Of a stretch of 64,000 nucleotides of DNA, positions 2,798 to 22,121 are shown in pieces. Within the stretch, counting starts at the first letter, position 1; every line of letters starts with the position of its first letter. The stretch is taken from NCBI RefSeq assembly GCF_058153355.1, contig NZ_CM177019.1. One strand, given 5' to 3'. The notes beneath the pieces were generated by a model. It had not been told where the DNA came from. It made no database searches and was given only the letters and a program-made list of their open reading frames with translations. The translations under genes and the position numbers were made by a program.

Positions 2798-4282
2798 TTA
2801 CGCATTCGACCAGCTCTGGATCGAATCTTCATTCCCCAGCTCACCATGCATCACTTCATACGATTTTTTCAGGATCACATCAGTGTGTTTGGTTAGGTCT
2901 TTGAAAATGCCTTTATTCATCGCGTCGTAGCGTTTGGCGTTGCTCTCAACAGGCATAAAGATATCTTTCACGCGAACCATTTTGTCGACAGCCGTTGCGT
3001 AATCCGGGTATAGCCCCAGACCTACCGCCGTATTAATCGCTGCCCCCAGGCTTGCACAACCGTTAATGGCGTTACGTCGTGCCGGAAGGTTGAACACGTC
3101 GGCAAAAATTTGCATAAACAGATCGCTGTTCGAACCGCCGCCAGTAATGATCACATGTTTCGCAAAGTGATTCATTTCATGACACATATTGTCGTAATTG
3201 TTCTTCAGCGTCAGCGTCAGCGCCACGCTTTCCAGTATCGAACGATATATCCATGCGTAATCCATGCTGGAATCAAAGCCGATCATAATCCCGCGTTTGT
3301 ACGGTTCCCACGGATTGGTCAGCCAGTCCAGCACCGTCATCAGACCATTACAGCCAGGCGGCACACAACAAGCTTTTTTGTTGAGCAAATCTTCCGGTGA
3401 AAGATCCTGCGCCCTGGCATCCTGAATTAACGATTCGCCTAGCATGTCGCGCAGCCAACTCACCGTCCACATGCCTTTGCGAATACCGTAACCTTCATAC
3501 AGCAAGGTTTGCGGAATAGAAGACATAATCGGCCAGTACGCTACCGGATCTTTCGGCAGTACTTTGCCGTTCATCATCAACGCGATGTAAGTGCCAAGAG
3601 AAATTACCGCAGTTTCATCATCCAGTAACCCGGCTCCCAGTGCTTCTACCGGTTTATCACTGGTGGTACAAACAACCGGCAGCCCAGCCGGGAAATGTGT
3701 CGCCAGCGCGGCTTGTGGTGTGATATGCCCAAGAACAGTGCCCGGCATTTGCACATCAAAAAGCATCTGTTGGGGAATATTAAACTTCTCCATTACCGCG
3801 GTATCTTCGCTCCATGCCCAGGTCTTATAATCCACCGGCCACTGACCAAAATAGTTGGCGATATTGTCTTTAAACTCGCCGGTTAAACGGTGTGTCAGAT
3901 AACCTGAAAAAGAGGTGACATATGCCACATCAGGATTGGTGTGCTCGTAGGGACGTGTTACGCGTGCATCCTGCCAGCTAATCAACGGCGCAGCTGGCGT
4001 GCCATCGGCTTTCAATAACGCACGGCAGCAACGGATAGATCCCAGACCAATGCCGACAATATCTTCTTTATTCCCGGCAAACTGGCTCATCAAATCGTGA
4101 CCAGCAAAACATAATGATGCCCATAAATCATCGTCAGGATGTTCTGCGGTATCGGCATCTGGAGTGTGCATCGGTTGTAATAAGCCTTTGCCTTCGCAAA
4201 CCACGTTACCTTCCAGATCGTACATCACCACTTTTGTGCTCTGACTTCCGCCATCAATCCCTATGATGTATTTTTTCGACAT
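2798..4282 (-). CDS. ygcE: FGGY-family carbohydrate kinase
   Basis: 494 aa ORF; N-terminal IGIDGGSQSTK kinase signature. Confidence 0.85.
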   Translation of the reverse strand: MSKKYIIGIDGGSQSTKVVMYDLEGNVVCEGKGLLQPMHTPDADTAEHPDDDLWASLCFAGHDLMSQFAGNKEDIVGIGLGSIRCCRALLKADGTPAAPLISWQDARVTRPYEHTNPDVAYVTSFSGYLTHRLTGEFKDNIANYFGQWPVDYKTWAWSEDTAVMEKFNIPQQMLFDVQMPGTVLGHITPQAALATHFPAGLPVVCTTSDKPVEALGAGLLDDETAVISLGTYIALMMNGKVLPKDPVAYWPIMSSIPQTLLYEGYGIRKGMWTVSWLRDMLGESLIQDARAQDLSPEDLLNKKACCVPPGCNGLMTVLDWLTNPWEPYKRGIMIGFDSSMDYAWIYRSILESVALTLTLKNNYDNMCHEMNHFAKHVIITGGGSNSDLFMQIFADVFNLPARRNAINGCASLGAAINTAVGLGLYPDYATAVDKMVRVKDIFMPVESNAKRYDAMNKGIFKDLTKHTDVILKKSYEVMHGELGNEDSIQSWSNA

Positions 4283-4308
4283 GATTTTTCTCCTGTAATT
4301 TTCCTGGC

Positions 4309-5586
4309 TTACTTGCTGCTAGCCATTGCGGGGGCGCTATCAGCAGTACGAATTTTTTGGAACAGCAAAAAGGTAAAGACGATCACCATGGCAAGCGCCG
4401 CCATGCCCATCAGCCACATATTGCGGTAGGCTTCTGCCGCGGGCAGGGTGTCTTGCCAGTGGCCGATAATTGGGTAAACGAAGACATCCGGCAGAAATCC
4501 AATCACCGAACAAATACCTACCGTGGTGCCCATAATGTAAGACGGTGTTCTCGCTTCGCCGGGGCAGGCCCAGTACAGCCCGCGGGAGGCGTAGCAGGTG
4601 AATCCCAGTAGTAAAATCAGGCCAATCCCCATCGCGACCGATTGCGGGTTAGAGTTCGTGATGAGCAGGGCAGTTAACGCCAGCAGGCCGAGTACGGAAA
4701 GGATTTGGATCACGCGGGTAGGGGATTTCACTTTGCTGTAGGTGGTGATAATGCCACCAAGTGGGCCGCACAGTGCGCGGAAGATTTTGTTGATCACAAT
4801 CCCCATGTAGCTCGCCGCCACCAGCGACATGCCGTACATTTCGGTCAGATAGTTGGTGGAGTAACTCAGAATGGCGTAGATGGTGAAGACGCCAAAAATC
4901 ACCATGCTGCAGTACCATGTGGTGCTGATACGCAAAACGGCAAGGATGTCGCTAAGCTGGAATGACTGTTTTTCTTCGGTGTTGGTATTGCGCAGGTTGT
5001 TGTTATCGCTAACAAAAAACCAGCACAGAATCCCCAACAAGATGTAAACCACACTATAGATGATAATGACCGTTTTCAGGCTGGCGCTGTCATCCGGTGC
5101 AAAGCGAGAAAAGACCCACATGGTAAACACCGCCAGCGACATTACACCGACGCCGCGCAGCCCTTCCATCCAGCCCATAATTTTCCCCTGCTCGCTATGA
5201 TCGCCAAGCAACGATGCGGCTTTAATCGACACCGACCACAGCATTAAAATCGTCGTTATCGCAAAGGCGACCTGAATACAGAGCATTACCCACAGCGGTG
5301 GATACGTTGCCATTAACAGACCCAGCAATCCGGTAATGATCATCGCGGAAGTAATCATTTTGCGGTGTGAAAATTTATCGGCAATAACGCTGCTGGGGGC
5401 ATAAAGAATAATAGCCGCAATACCAAAGGTACTCATTATTAAACCTATCTCGGTATTGCTGAATCCCATAAATTTCGCCATGGGAATTTGATAAATATAA
5501 CGTAAATAAGCCAGGTCGAAACTAACGCCGCCGCTAAAACTAATTATCGCGAGGGTTATCCAACGGCGATATGAGTTGTGTTGCAT
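4309..5586 (-). CDS. yqcE: MFS transporter
   Basis: 425 aa ORF, strongly hydrophobic with multiple predicted TM segments. Confidence 0.8.
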   Translation of the reverse strand: MQHNSYRRWITLAIISFSGGVSFDLAYLRYIYQIPMAKFMGFSNTEIGLIMSTFGIAAIILYAPSSVIADKFSHRKMITSAMIITGLLGLLMATYPPLWVMLCIQVAFAITTILMLWSVSIKAASLLGDHSEQGKIMGWMEGLRGVGVMSLAVFTMWVFSRFAPDDSASLKTVIIIYSVVYILLGILCWFFVSDNNNLRNTNTEEKQSFQLSDILAVLRISTTWYCSMVIFGVFTIYAILSYSTNYLTEMYGMSLVAASYMGIVINKIFRALCGPLGGIITTYSKVKSPTRVIQILSVLGLLALTALLITNSNPQSVAMGIGLILLLGFTCYASRGLYWACPGEARTPSYIMGTTVGICSVIGFLPDVFVYPIIGHWQDTLPAAEAYRNMWLMGMAALAMVIVFTFLLFQKIRTADSAPAMASSK

Positions 5587-17869: not shown

Positions 17870-18604
17870 ATGTCCAAACTCGATCTAAATGCCCTGAACG
17901 AACTGCCGAAGGTAGATCGCATTCTGGCGCTGGCGGAAACTAACGCCGAGCTTGAAAAACTGGATGCTGAAGGCCGCGTTGCCTGGGCGCTGGATAATCT
18001 GCCCGGTGAATATGTGCTTTCTTCCAGCTTCGGTATCCAGGCGGCGGTTAGCCTGCATCTGGTGAATCAGATTCGCCCGGATATTCCGGTGATCCTCACC
18101 GATACCGGTTATCTGTTTCCGGAAACCTACCGCTTTATTGACGAGTTAACGGACAAACTCAAGCTCAACCTGAAAGTGTACCGCGCTACCGAAAGCGCCG
18201 CCTGGCAGGAAGCACGCTACGGCAAACTGTGGGAGCAGGGCGTTGAAGGCATTGAAAAGTACAACGATATCAACAAAGTCGAACCGATGAACCGGGCGCT
18301 GAAAGAACTGAACGCACAAACGTGGTTTGCTGGCCTGCGCCGTGAACAATCCGGCAGCCGCGCTAATTTACCGGTGTTGGCAATTCAGCGTGGCGTATTT
18401 AAAGTGCTGCCGATTATCGACTGGGATAACCGAACTATTTATCAGTATCTGCAAAAACATGGCCTGAAATATCACCCATTATGGGACGAAGGATATTTAT
18501 CGGTTGGTGATACCCATACAACCCGTAAATGGGAACCTGGTATGGCGGAAGAAGAAACGCGTTTCTTTGGCTTAAAAAGGGAATGTGGGCTGCACGAAGG
18601 GTAA
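17870..18604 (+). CDS. cysH: phosphoadenosine phosphosulfate reductase
   Basis: 244 aa from [14 protein letters not shown]; ORF-track start 17708 is an upstream extension across the REP. Confidence 0.9.
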
Positions 18605-18770
18605 ATATTGCCGGATAAAATAAACGCCTCTGTCAGAAATGATGGGGGCGTTTTTATTTTGCGAGCCGCATTCCGGCATTTAAACGTGAATATAGCAGGG
18701 GAAATCAACAGTTATAGAATGGCGTCGGGTGCTTGAGGCTGTCTGGTGTTGAGCATTCGCGAGGTTCCAG

Positions 18771-18874
18771 ATGGACAAAAGCCCCAGGCGATATATCTAT
18801 CAACCTGAGGCTTACGTTCGAACCCAAACAATTCGAATGTTAGTCTCTTCTTTGCAGGGAGGCAAGACATGCTG
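18771..18874 (+). CDS. Mok-like leader ORF overlapping the hok start (translational coupling)
   Basis: ATG 18771 to TGA 18872-18874, overlapping the hok ATG at 18869; arrangement typical of hok/mok loci. Confidence 0.3.
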
Positions 18875-19021
18875 ACAAAATATGCCCTTGTGGCAATCAT
18901 CGTACTGTGTTGTACAGTACTGGGATTCACGCTGATGGTAGGCGACTCGTTGTGTGAGTTGAGTATCAGAGAACGTGGTATGGAGTTTAAGGCAGTTCTC
19001 GCTTACGAACCGAAGAAGTAG
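18869..19021 (+). CDS. Hok/Gef-family type I toxin (HokE-like membrane peptide)
   Basis: 50 aa [50 protein letters not shown]; close to my recollection of K-12 HokE (not checked against a database); below the ORF-track length cutoff. Confidence 0.7.
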
Positions 19022-19259
19022 CCACCACGCGGGGGTAAAACCCCGCGTATTGAATTGTGATGGTTTGGTCTCCTGCACCCTTTTTTTCATTTATATTGTT
19101 TTTGTGAATATTATGCCTGTGTTTATTATTTATATATATCACAGATGAAAATCATTGAATTATTCATAATGTAAATATTTTATTGAACGATATATATCAC
19201 AGATAATTTTTAATATATGCGTAAATATCCTTTAAGTTTTACTGAAGGATAAAAACATT

Positions 19260-20936
19260 GTGACTTTCTTTGATTTCTGGGGAAAAACCCGACGTGGCGA
19301 GAAAGAGGGTGGCGACGATTATCACCTTCTTTGCTGGCATTCGCTGGATGTAGCCGCGATAGGCTATTTAATGGTCAAAAACAACTGTTTCGGGCTGGCT
19401 GACTATTTTCGTCAATTAGGTTTCGCTGACACGGATCAGGCAGCACAATTTTTCGCCTGGTTGTTGTGCTGGCACGATACTGGAAAATTTGCCCGCTCAT
19501 TTCAGCAACTTTACCTGCACCCACAACTCAAGGTTCCGGAAGGCGCAAGAAAGAATTACGAAAAGATCTCTCATTCAACGCTGGGTTACTGGTTGTGGCA
19601 TCATTATTTAATTGAATGTGAAGAGTTGCTTCCTTCATCTTCACTCTCTTTGCGCAAACTTAAACGGGTAATAGATATGTGGATGCCCGTGACGACCGGG
19701 CATCATGGTCGGCCTCCTGACCGTATCGATGAACTGGACAACTTTCTACCTGAAGACAAAGCTGCCGCACGAGATTTTCTCCTTGAAATCAAGGTACTGT
19801 TTCCGCTCATCGAGATCCCTACATTCTGGGATGATGACGAGGGCGTTGAACTTATAAAACATCTTTCCTGGTATATATCTGCAACCGTCGTACTCGCAGA
19901 CTGGACGGGATCGTCAACGCGGTTTTTTCCACGCGTCGCACATGTAATGGATATTAAAGATTACTGGCAGAATGCTTTAGCTCAGGCTCAAAACGCATTA
20001 ACCGTCTTTCCTCCAAAAGCAGAAACCGCACCTTTCACTGGAATTAACACGCTGTTTCCTTTTATTGAGAACCCAACACCGTTACAGCAAAAGGTGCTGG
20101 ATCTGGATATCAGCCAGCCAGGACCGCAGTTGTTTATTCTGGAAGATGTGACTGGCGCAGGTAAAACAGAAGCGGCGCTTATCTTGGCGCACAGGTTGAT
20201 GTCTGCGGGGAAAGCACAGGGTTTGTTTTTTGGCCTGCCAACAATGGCAACGGCCAATGCCATGTACGATAGGCTGGTAAAAACCTAGCTTGCTTTCTAT
20301 TCGCCACAATCCCGCCCCAGCCTGGTGCTGGCACACAGCGCTCGTTCGCTAATGGATCGCTTTAACGCATCGCTGTGGTCTGGTGATTTTGTGGGGTCAG
20401 AAGAACCGGATGAACAAGCGTTCAGTCAGGGATGTGCGGCCTGGTTTGCTGACAGTAACAAGAAGGCGTTGCTGGCTGAAATTGGCGTCGGCACGCTGGA
20501 TCAGGCGATGATGGCGGTGATGCCGTTCAAACATAATAATCTGCGGCTTCTGGGGCTGAGTAACAAAATCCTGCTAGCCGATGAGATCCACGCCTGTGAC
20601 GCTTATATGTCGTGCATTCTTGAAGGGCTGATCGAGCGGCAGGCGCGTGGCGGAAACAGCGTTATTTTGCTTTCTGCTACGTTGTCTCAACAGCAGCGTG
20701 ACAAACTCGTCGCCGCCTTTGCGCGTGGTGCAGAGGGCCAGCAAGAAGCTCCGTTGCTGGAAAAAGATGATTATCCCTGGCTGACGCATGTCACGAAATC
20801 CGATGTGCATTCGCACCGGGTAGCGACGCGCAAAGACGTTGAGCGCAGCGTGAGTGTGGGTTGGCTTCATAGCGAACAAGAGTGTATTGCGCGTATCGAA
20901 TCGGCGGTAAGGTGTTCCCCGCGCCAGCGGGGATAA
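19260..20936 (+). pseudogene. cas3: cas3 (type I-E) pseudogene: in-frame TAG at 20286-20288 and 3' truncation into a CRISPR repeat
   Basis: HD-nuclease motifs (WHSLDVAA, WHDTGKF) and helicase Walker A (TGAGKTEAAL); ORFs 19260-20288 and 20325-20936 are in the same frame separated by one amber codon; the frame ends inside the first repeat; total about 557 codons versus about 890 expected. Confidence 0.75.
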
Positions 20937-21062
20937 ACCGTCGACAATGGATAAGTTGACTTCAGGTCTGGGGAGTTCCCCGCGCTAGCGGGAATAAACC
21001 GTGCAGTACGCCTGATGACAAACCAAGCATCGGGAGTTCCCCCGCGTCAGCGGGGGAACTCC
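20912..21062 (+). CRISPR. minimal type I-E CRISPR array: 3 repeats, 2 spacers of 32 bp; last repeat degenerate
   Basis: Repeats gtgttccccgcgccagcggggataaaccg (20912-20940), gagttccccgcgctagcgggaataaaccg (20973-21001), degenerate gagttcccccgcgtcagcgggggaactc (from 21034); spacers 20941-20972 and 21002-21033. Confidence 0.85.
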
Positions 21063-21083
21063 CAGCTCCCATTTTCAAACGCC

Positions 21084-22121
21084 TCATGACGCCTTCGCCA
21101 GTTCCTTCACTAGCGGTAGCATTATCCGCATAACGTCACGGCAGCGACGTTCTATTCTTCCAGGAAGCGCCTTATCAATATGCTGTTGATTATCAAGCCT
21201 TACATCATGCCAGCTATTTCCCGCCGGGAAGGCCGGTGTTTTTGCGCGTTGCTGATAACCATCCTTATTTCCAAGATTCCAGTTGGTCGCCTCCACCGAA
21301 AGTACCGCAATACCGGCTTTGTCGAAAACTTCTGCATCGTTACAACACCCAGTGCCTTTCGGATAGTTTTTATTCAAACCTGGATTTGTTGTCGCTGCAA
21401 TCCCATGATTATGCGCAATTGCCAGCGCTCGATCACGGGTTAATTTCCTGACAGCCTCTGGTGTATTTACACCACTATTAAAATACAATTTATCGCCAAC
21501 AATTAAGTTATCGAGATTAATCACCAGCAGCGTATTTTTCTTTTCAGTATCGCTCATGCGCTTGAGTAAATTCTCAGCGCCTAATTTCCCTTCTTCTTCT
21601 CCACTGGTTGCCACAAAACGAATACCATACTCGGTAGGCGTATTTTTCAGACGTTCAGCCAGTTCCAGCATGACACCTAAACCTGCGGCGTTATCATCCA
21701 TTCCTTGTAATGTCAGCCCGCCGAGATTGGCATCGGCGTCGGCATCGCTCAGTGGAGCGTACGTATCAAGATGCGCCATAATAATGATCTGCTGCGGCGC
21801 TTTGCCTTCATGAGCGGCAATCACCGTACTTCCCGTCACGTTGTGCCAGTTTTTGCGGTTATCGCGGGCGGTGTAAATATATCGGCTATTAAATGTCCGA
21901 ATATCACTGCGATAACCCATCTGTTGAAACTGTTGGCGAATATAATCGGCAGATAACATTTCTGCAGGAGTTCCGGTCATGCGTCCCGGAAAGAAAGTAG
22001 CAATATGTCGTGCCTGTGTATTAGCAAAATCACCAGGTTTAGGTGACGAGGCGTGTACGGGGAGAATAAAGCATACGCCGAGCGCCAGGGCAGCGGTACG
22101 GTGGCGCAATGCGGAAAACAT
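21084..22121 (-). CDS. iap: alkaline phosphatase isozyme conversion aminopeptidase
   Basis: 345 aa ORF with signal peptide; position next to the CRISPR array as in K-12. Confidence 0.85.
   Translation of the reverse strand: MFSALRHRTAALALGVCFILPVHASSPKPGDFANTQARHIATFFPGRMTGTPAEMLSADYIRQQFQQMGYRSDIRTFNSRYIYTARDNRKNWHNVTGSTVIAAHEGKAPQQIIIMAHLDTYAPLSDADADANLGGLTLQGMDDNAAGLGVMLELAERLKNTPTEYGIRFVATSGEEEGKLGAENLLKRMSDTEKKNTLLVINLDNLIVGDKLYFNSGVNTPEAVRKLTRDRALAIAHNHGIAATTNPGLNKNYPKGTGCCNDAEVFDKAGIAVLSVEATNWNLGNKDGYQQRAKTPAFPAGNSWHDVRLDNQQHIDKALPGRIERRCRDVMRIMLPLVKELAKAS

Follow-up and report, generated by a model that had tools for sequence, protein, structure and literature searches.

Results

A Hok-family toxin gene between cysH and cas3

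Within the window (by which we mean the whole 64-kb stretch of DNA that was analysed), cysH ends at 18604 and cas3 starts at 19260, and between them lies a 50-aa open reading frame (ORF) with an ATG start (18869–19021, + strand), hereafter hokX. A Shine–Dalgarno sequence, GGAGG (18858–18862, + strand), was read from the sequence 6 nt before the ATG and is invariant in the 40 aligned loci described below. An earlier reading of the DNA by eye (the original prediction) had proposed a Hok-family peptide here, and the translated product indeed matched Pfam PF01848 (HOK_GEF) over the full model (positions 1–42 of 42) with E = 6.3e-10. HokE is its closest K-12 paralogue, with 40 of 50 residues identical (80% at the amino acid level, and ~81% DNA identity over 245 nt), and the DSLCE... 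tail, which the original prediction had likened to HokE, is among the residues shared by the two peptides. Scores against NCBIfam models were all sub-threshold (52.8 bits against a cut-off of 89 for the HokA equivalog NF007290, and 36.2 bits against 73 for the Hok subfamily NF007279). A HokA identity is hence ruled out by the curated cut-off and no equivalog name applies to the peptide, which PGAP labels only as 'Hok/Gef family protein'. Over the 40 aligned loci, drawn from several genera, the peptide is under purifying selection, with a mean pN/pS of 0.21.

The hok leader and its putative promoter

Of all Rfam families, RF01794 ('sok') was the only one to exceed its threshold anywhere in the 64-kb window. 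It was matched at full length (model positions 1–157) by 18727–18884 on the + strand and scored 111.5 bits, the gathering threshold being 59. This hok-strand match begins at the mRNA 5′ end and extends through the hok start, and accordingly describes the hok leader. Despite its title, 'sok antitoxin', this family in practice models the leader of the toxin mRNA and not the ~59-nt antisense RNA. The Rfam leader, the Pfam peptide and the K-12 alignment thus agree on a hok/sok-type type I locus between cysH and cas3, as originally predicted. A sub-threshold match to ctRNA_p42d at 18620–18662 (30 bits against 50) is most likely due to chance and corresponds to the cysH terminator hairpin, a 14-bp stem followed by a T-run.

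The putative hok promoter has its −10 element, TAGAAT (18715–18720, + strand), 7 nt upstream of the first Rfam-matched base, and a weak −35 element, ATAGCA, read from the sequence at 18692–18697 (+ strand); TATAGAAT at this promoter is kept in hokX alleles. With its 5′ end placed at the start of the Rfam model and its 3′ end at a T-run, the full-length hok mRNA would span 18727–19087 (+ strand). A consensus promoter/terminator scan called neither the hok promoter nor the Sok promoter described below, and no terminator after hok; all it called in this region was the cysH terminator (18622–18653) and a pair of promoter-like sites at odds with the layout of the locus. Both promoters are therefore by-eye readings, and what backs them is conservation.

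The antisense RNA SokX

The Sok antisense RNA, which the original prediction had been unable to locate by eye, could be mapped through K-12 SokX to 18829→18771 on the − strand, where 55 of 59 nucleotides are identical to the annotated K-12 ncRNA sokX (b4701). In its predicted fold (z = −4.3), an unpaired 5′ tail precedes an 11-bp GC-rich hairpin, which UUUUG follows as a tail, and the predicted RNA lies opposite the leader without overlapping the hok ORF. A promoter for it can be read on the − strand at 18865→18837, with a −35 TTGCCT (18865→18860), a 17-nt spacer and a −10 TAACAT (18842→18837), overlapping the hok Shine–Dalgarno region. At 8 of 12 consensus matches it falls below the threshold of the generic scan, so that the minus-strand promoter prediction suggested earlier as a check gave no call, but the TTGCCT-17-TAACAT arrangement read by eye is conserved: all 40 loci have the same −35 and a 17-nt spacer, with TAACAT, TACTAT or TACCAT as the −10.

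Alternative folds of the hok mRNA

For plasmid R1 hok/sok, a 5′–3′ tac/fbi helix is described as locking the full-length RNA, followed by slow 3′ trimming and by tac/ucb refolding that permits translation and Sok binding, and the nascent RNA has a metastable 5′ hairpin (PMC9841398). We folded the predicted hokX transcript in its full-length, trimmed and nascent forms. The tac element, the 5′ end of the mRNA (18727–18740, + strand), has a different partner in each, namely fbi, ucb and 18748–18758, respectively. The full transcript (18727–19085) has a minimum free energy (MFE) of −132.2 kcal/mol (z = −4.6), and its MFE fold joins 18727–18740 by 12 pairs to 19067–19080 (+ strand), the fbi element GGUCUCCUGCACCC. 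The duplex of tac with the 3′ UTR, at −21.2 kcal/mol, was equalled by 15 of 3637 background windows (0.4%) and by 4 of 2000 shuffles (0.2%). In the same fold a second 3′ UTR segment (19050–19066, + strand) pairs with 18820–18836, the region of the Sok-target loop, and ucb, AAGCCCC (18779–18785, + strand), pairs with GGCUU at 18809–18813.

When the RNA was cut at 19052, with 33 nt taken off its 3′ end, the MFE structure flipped to one in which GGG.GCUU of tac pairs with AAGCCCC of ucb. The fold of this trimmed form (18727–19052) is the Rfam consensus structure and presents the Sok-target hairpin (18807–18847, + strand, from the Rfam structure and folding), whose loop CCCAAACAA (18823–18831) can base-pair with the 5′ tail of Sok. 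In the nascent RNA, the first 30–56 nt form the tac hairpin, at −15 kcal/mol. An mRNA devoid of fold-back elements would have spoken against the original prediction; folding predicts both the 5′–3′ pairing and the refolding.

The 3′ end of the transcript

Directly after the hokX stop codon, folding predicts a stable GC hairpin, ACGCGGGG/CCCCGCGU (19027–19048, + strand), and a run of seven T residues (19081–19087, + strand) directly after fbi marks the probable 3′ end of the mRNA. Both the hairpin and the T-tract noticed earlier are thus present, but the scan and the local fold disagree with a single canonical terminator. The two are 32 nt apart, the bases just before the T-run are those of fbi, which pairs with the mRNA 5′ end, and the local 3′ UTR fold is unexceptional (z = −1.65), with no convincing hairpin beside the T-run. 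We consequently dropped the reading of hairpin plus T-tract as a terminator, given the 32-nt gap, the absence of a terminator call and the weak local fold. The GC hairpin is presumed to block 3′ trimming. Because the T-run directly follows fbi without a good local hairpin, the long-range 5′–3′ helix could contribute to setting where the transcript ends; many relatives, though not all, have a T-run after fbi.

Candidate coupling ORFs upstream of hokX

A 34-codon ORF on the + strand starts at ATG 18771, 6 nt after a GAGG, and ends with TGA at 18873–18875, that is, 7 nt into hok, whose start it overlaps as ATGCTGA. The original prediction had likened this ORF to mok and placed its end at 18874; the overlap with the hok start stands, with the end corrected to 18875. 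The ORF starts at the edge of the Sok region, its Shine–Dalgarno sequence being outside the Sok-complementary region, and the ATGCTGA overlap would allow termination–reinitiation coupling.

The likeness to mok holds for this allele, in which the ORF is open and overlaps the hok ATG, but not for most orthologues. The 34-codon ORF is also open in the K-12 and NCTC9087 alleles, whereas CFT073-type alleles have it closed: in CFT073 by a C→T change at 18825 that creates TAA, and in ZH063 and PapRG by a 1-nt deletion at 18824–18826. In most Escherichia and Pseudocitrobacter relatives the ORF is likewise truncated, and of the wider relatives half lack a start codon at the site of ATG 18771. As the ORF is closed in most orthologues, its assignment as mok is tentative. 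The only part that is conserved open in the hokX group is a 12-codon frame from ATG 18837 to 18875; in the hokE group, the equivalent of ATG 18837 is in frame with hok. Both candidate coupling ORFs, of 34 and 12 codons, are intact in the allele studied here.

The GAGG at 18807–18810 is presumably the counterpart of the Shine–Dalgarno sequence of plasmid R1 mok; in E. coli hokX, unlike R1, no start codon was found 5–10 nt after it, where that of mok would be expected. In R1, the mok frame differs from that of hok and spans most of it, whereas the candidate upstream ORFs of hokX extend 7 nt into hok. An ATG ~50 nt before hok is present in some Klebsiella relatives.

Conservation across Enterobacteriaceae

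Relatives were gathered with a degenerate DNA pattern for EFKAVLAYE, which matched 41 stretches in GTDB species genomes. The matched genera include Escherichia, Citrobacter, Klebsiella, Enterobacter, Pseudescherichia, Phytobacter and Pseudocitrobacter, among others, and the stretches encode HokX/HokE-like peptides. Forty distinct loci, the window's own included, were aligned from tac to fbi. A locus from the plasmid search (L008), in which the tac pattern had no match, was left out of this comparison.

The long-range pairs of the full-length fold were paired in 82.8% of cases, compared with 31–48% when the partner was slid, and the leader pairs of the trimmed form in 91%, compared with 32–52%, these contrasts being inflated since the fold of the window itself supplied the structures. 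Eight of the long-range pairs and 12 of the leader pairs changed on both sides. Among individual helices over the 40 loci, GGGUGC/GCACCC (tac/fbi) was 99.6% paired and almost invariant, and hence demonstrates conservation, not covariation; the tac/ucb helix was 94% paired, and the Sok-target helix 84%, with four pairs changed on both sides. The main helix between 19050–19066 and 18820–18836 was 82% paired, and five of its nine pairs changed on both sides in the relatives. Within E. coli, A18836/T19050 of this helix is replaced by G/C in CFT073 and ZH063 and by G/T in PapRG. The fbi element complementary to tac is found 41–52 nt after the stop codon in 38 of the 40 loci, and the remainder of the 3′ UTR diverges.

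Linkage of hok to cysH extends to other Escherichia species, Pseudocitrobacter and related genomes. Outside Escherichia, hok was observed beside cysH in five loci (L017, L018, L023, L042 and L048) from Pseudocitrobacter, a Pluralibacter MAG and Enterobacteriaceae bacterium RIT691. The CysH proteins of Pseudocitrobacter are 98–100% identical to that of the window, which is unexpectedly high for another genus. Some contigs carry two hok loci, either ~500 bp apart (L029, Enterobacter sp. JUb54; L031, of the hokE type, E. whittamii; L039, Klebsiella spallanzanii) or ~1200 bp apart (L040, K. spallanzanii). One further pattern match comes from a short, low-coverage contig of Marinobacter sp. B9-2 (L020), which may be contamination or a fragment; no Hok-length ORF could be assigned in this 353-nt piece.

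A scan of viral contigs with the peptide yielded only one hokE-like locus, not enough to compare. In tblastn searches of plasmids, the plasmid Hok peptides were ~42% identical to that of hokX, except for a few higher records, of which the example H71 is a chromosome-sized record filed as a plasmid. A recent plasmid origin of hokX is rejected on account of this ~42% identity.

Distribution and alleles in E. coli

At least 80% of the 364-nt locus is held by 4146 of the 5426 complete E. coli genomes in RefSeq, annotated as 'Hok/Gef family protein', with 95–100% DNA identity among the matches listed. The window's allele is uncommon in detail, with at least 99% identity in five records only; strain N96 is identical to it over 18600–19260, and the gene product is WP_000956457.1.

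The locus has been described before. A 2014 study counted 'the hok sok system' among the elements of the E. coli CRISPR-I locus and reported it from every strain apart from carriers of the K-12-type cas-E2 variant (PMC3903273). The gene between cysH and iap was named hokX, having first been seen in E. coli B, where an insertion element inactivates it; it is intact in strain NRG857c, and all five hok loci of K-12 are reported to be non-functional (PMC7232551). Of 237 urinary isolates, 90% carry hok and sokX beside cysH, and the rest have sokX alone, as in K-12 (PMC12736100).

The variants that we found were the full locus beside cas3, cysH–hok–iap without cas genes (CFT073), the K-12 type without hok, and one in which IS421/IS186 sits in the 3′ hairpin and fbi is removed (NCTC9087). 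In this last variant, seen in a set of strains, the IS421/IS186 element occupies 2817–4339 of the NCTC9087 locus (L005), equivalent to ~19043 of the window, within the GC hairpin 3′ of hokX. K-12 hokE (L004, 1508) has IS186 at the same relative place, and both insertions separate fbi from the mRNA.

Downstream of hokX, the window holds a remnant of a type I-E CRISPR-Cas system (19260–21064) from which casA–E, cas1 and cas2 are absent. Its cas3 is broken into ORFs at 19260–20288 and 20325–20936 and fused at ~20910 to three CRISPR repeats (20911–20941, 20972–21002 and 21034–21064), and iap (21084–22121, − strand) directly follows the third. None of the complete E. coli genomes had the cas3–CRISPR junction contiguous. 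In strain N96, whose hok region is identical, casA is retained.

Discussion

The peptide and leader analysed here are members of the hok/sok family, Sok is positioned opposite the leader, and the alternative pairings of the mRNA are present and conserved. The locus is very probably the chromosomal E. coli hokX/sokX, a type I toxin–antitoxin module of the hok/sok family with every recognisable part intact. Counting against this reading are the two promoters below the consensus threshold of the scan, the lack of a called terminator at the 3′ end, the sub-threshold NCBIfam scores, the missing start codon after GAGG 18807–18810, the closure of the 34-codon ORF in most relatives and the reported lack of function of the K-12 hok loci. 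From E. coli hokX/sokX as described at cysH–cas3 or cysH–iap it has no essential difference, sharing both position and gene. As the known, published and widely annotated hokX/sokX (PMC7232551, PMC12736100, PMC3903273; 4146/5426 genomes), the locus is an ordinary finding, and the suggestion in the original prediction that it is noteworthy is not upheld.

The original prediction had named only sokX near cysH in K-12, and alignment to the K-12 intergenic region bears this out: leader and sokX are there, the toxin gene is not. The K-12 sokX remnant (b4701) aligns to the window without gaps and with scattered differences from cysH up to the hok ATG, and so shares the leader, the Sok gene and the start of the upstream ORF. 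It diverges right after that ATG and consequently lacks the hok ORF in its entirety, along with the 3′ hairpin and fbi. Since the K-12 reference is truncated at hokX, the locus is unexpected to a reader who knows K-12.

The hokE/sokE locus of K-12 has the same leader architecture and, as in hokX, a GC hairpin after the stop codon, and an intact hokE locus (L009) also has the tac/fbi pair. It differs in its site (ybdK–entD instead of cysH–cas3), in a 4-nt insertion before the ATG that alters the frame relations of the upstream ORFs, and, in K-12, in the IS186 that cuts off the 3′ UTR. For the archetype, R1 hok/sok (parB), the elements described are Hok, the antisense Sok, tac/fbi, ucb, refolding and the metastable 5′ hairpin (PMC9841398), and all have in silico counterparts in hokX. 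RF01794, built on hok/sok RNAs, matches the hokX leader, and plasmid Hok peptides have the more distant ~42% identity given above. The copy in the window being chromosomal, it has no obvious object for post-segregational killing.

As far as sequence can show, hokX/sokX would work like R1 hok/sok. A weak promoter would give a transcript of ~360 nt from ~18727, with tac held in a local hairpin while the RNA is nascent. Once the transcript is complete, tac would pair with the 3′-terminal fbi and the second 3′ UTR segment would cover the Sok-target loop; with both in place, the full-length RNA is proposed to be neither translated nor bound by Sok. Slow 3′ trimming, as far as the GC hairpin at 19027–19048, would take off fbi, and tac could then pair with ucb, whereupon the refolded leader would expose the region of translation initiation as well as the Sok-target hairpin. 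Constitutive transcription of the opposite strand (18829→18771) would supply the 59-nt Sok, whose 5′ tail would bind the target loop, leading to destruction of the mRNA. If Sok were lost, the upstream ORF, whose UGA overlaps the hok AUG, would be translated, which would allow ribosomes to initiate at hok; the resulting membrane peptide of 50 aa would then kill or arrest the cell. In this scheme, transcription, trimming, decay by RNase III, translational coupling and toxicity are modelled on the R1 paradigm.

Two other origins for the toxin ORF can be set aside. That it arose by chance in intergenic DNA is hardly credible: its small size is all that would suggest this, and the Pfam match, the Rfam score (111.5 bits against 59), the orthologues across many genera and the purifying selection contradict it. 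An equally negligible probability attaches to the locus being hokE itself or having been copied from it recently. Among K-12 paralogues HokE is indeed the closest (80% in amino acids and ~81% in DNA over 245 nt), but hokE sits between ybdK and entD and not between cysH and cas3, other Escherichia hold both loci at separate sites (L013/L014, L030/L031, L035/L036 and L050/L051), and alignment of the 3′ UTRs breaks down past the hairpin. Another role might be sought in the type I-E CRISPR-Cas system next door, which the module would guard against loss. CreTA RNA toxin–antitoxin pairs are reported to guard cas genes in this manner, and hokX directly adjoins cas3. The presence of hok sok also correlates with the cas-E variant, in that all strains except E2 carriers have it (PMC3903273). 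Such a tie is nevertheless very improbable: hok persists without cas genes in the order cysH–hok–iap (CFT073, ZH063 and PapRG), it is intact in the window, where cas3 is a broken remnant and casA–E, cas1 and cas2 are gone, and nothing in the sequence links Sok to cas expression.

A further question is whether the toxin is made. In our estimate, the odds that this strain expresses the module, and in a toxic-competent form, are about even. The converse, a structurally complete but translationally silent RNA/antisense pair from which no toxin is made, like the inactive K-12 hok loci, is a serious possibility, if somewhat short of even. Consistent with silence are the missing start codon 5–10 nt after GAGG 18807–18810 (where R1 mok would start), the break in the long leader ORF in most orthologues and the weak −35 of the hok promoter. 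The reported lack of function of the K-12 hok loci points the same way (PMC7232551). Expression of an active toxin is favoured instead by the leader ORF, which is open in this allele up to a UGA overlapping the hok AUG, by the 12-codon ORF ending at the same stop, which is kept across the hokX group, and by the purifying selection on the peptide across genera (pN/pS 0.21); moreover, there is no IS element or rearrangement here, unlike in NCTC9087 or K-12. Were hokX translation to depend on the leader ORF from ATG 18771, 98 nt upstream, alleles would differ in the translatability of the toxin, with that of this strain being translatable; we consider this dependence doubtful.

The locus is an intact copy of a published and very common chromosomal type I toxin–antitoxin locus, and has little significance beyond its correct annotation. 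For the specialist, the identity of the coupling frame (mok) is uncertain throughout the hokX/hokE group and differs from allele to allele, and if the leader ORF is the coupling frame, the C→T change and the 1-nt deletion that close it could be a natural on/off polymorphism. A further point of specialist interest is that the full set of hok mRNA switch elements is computationally recoverable for hokX and conserved across several enterobacterial genera.
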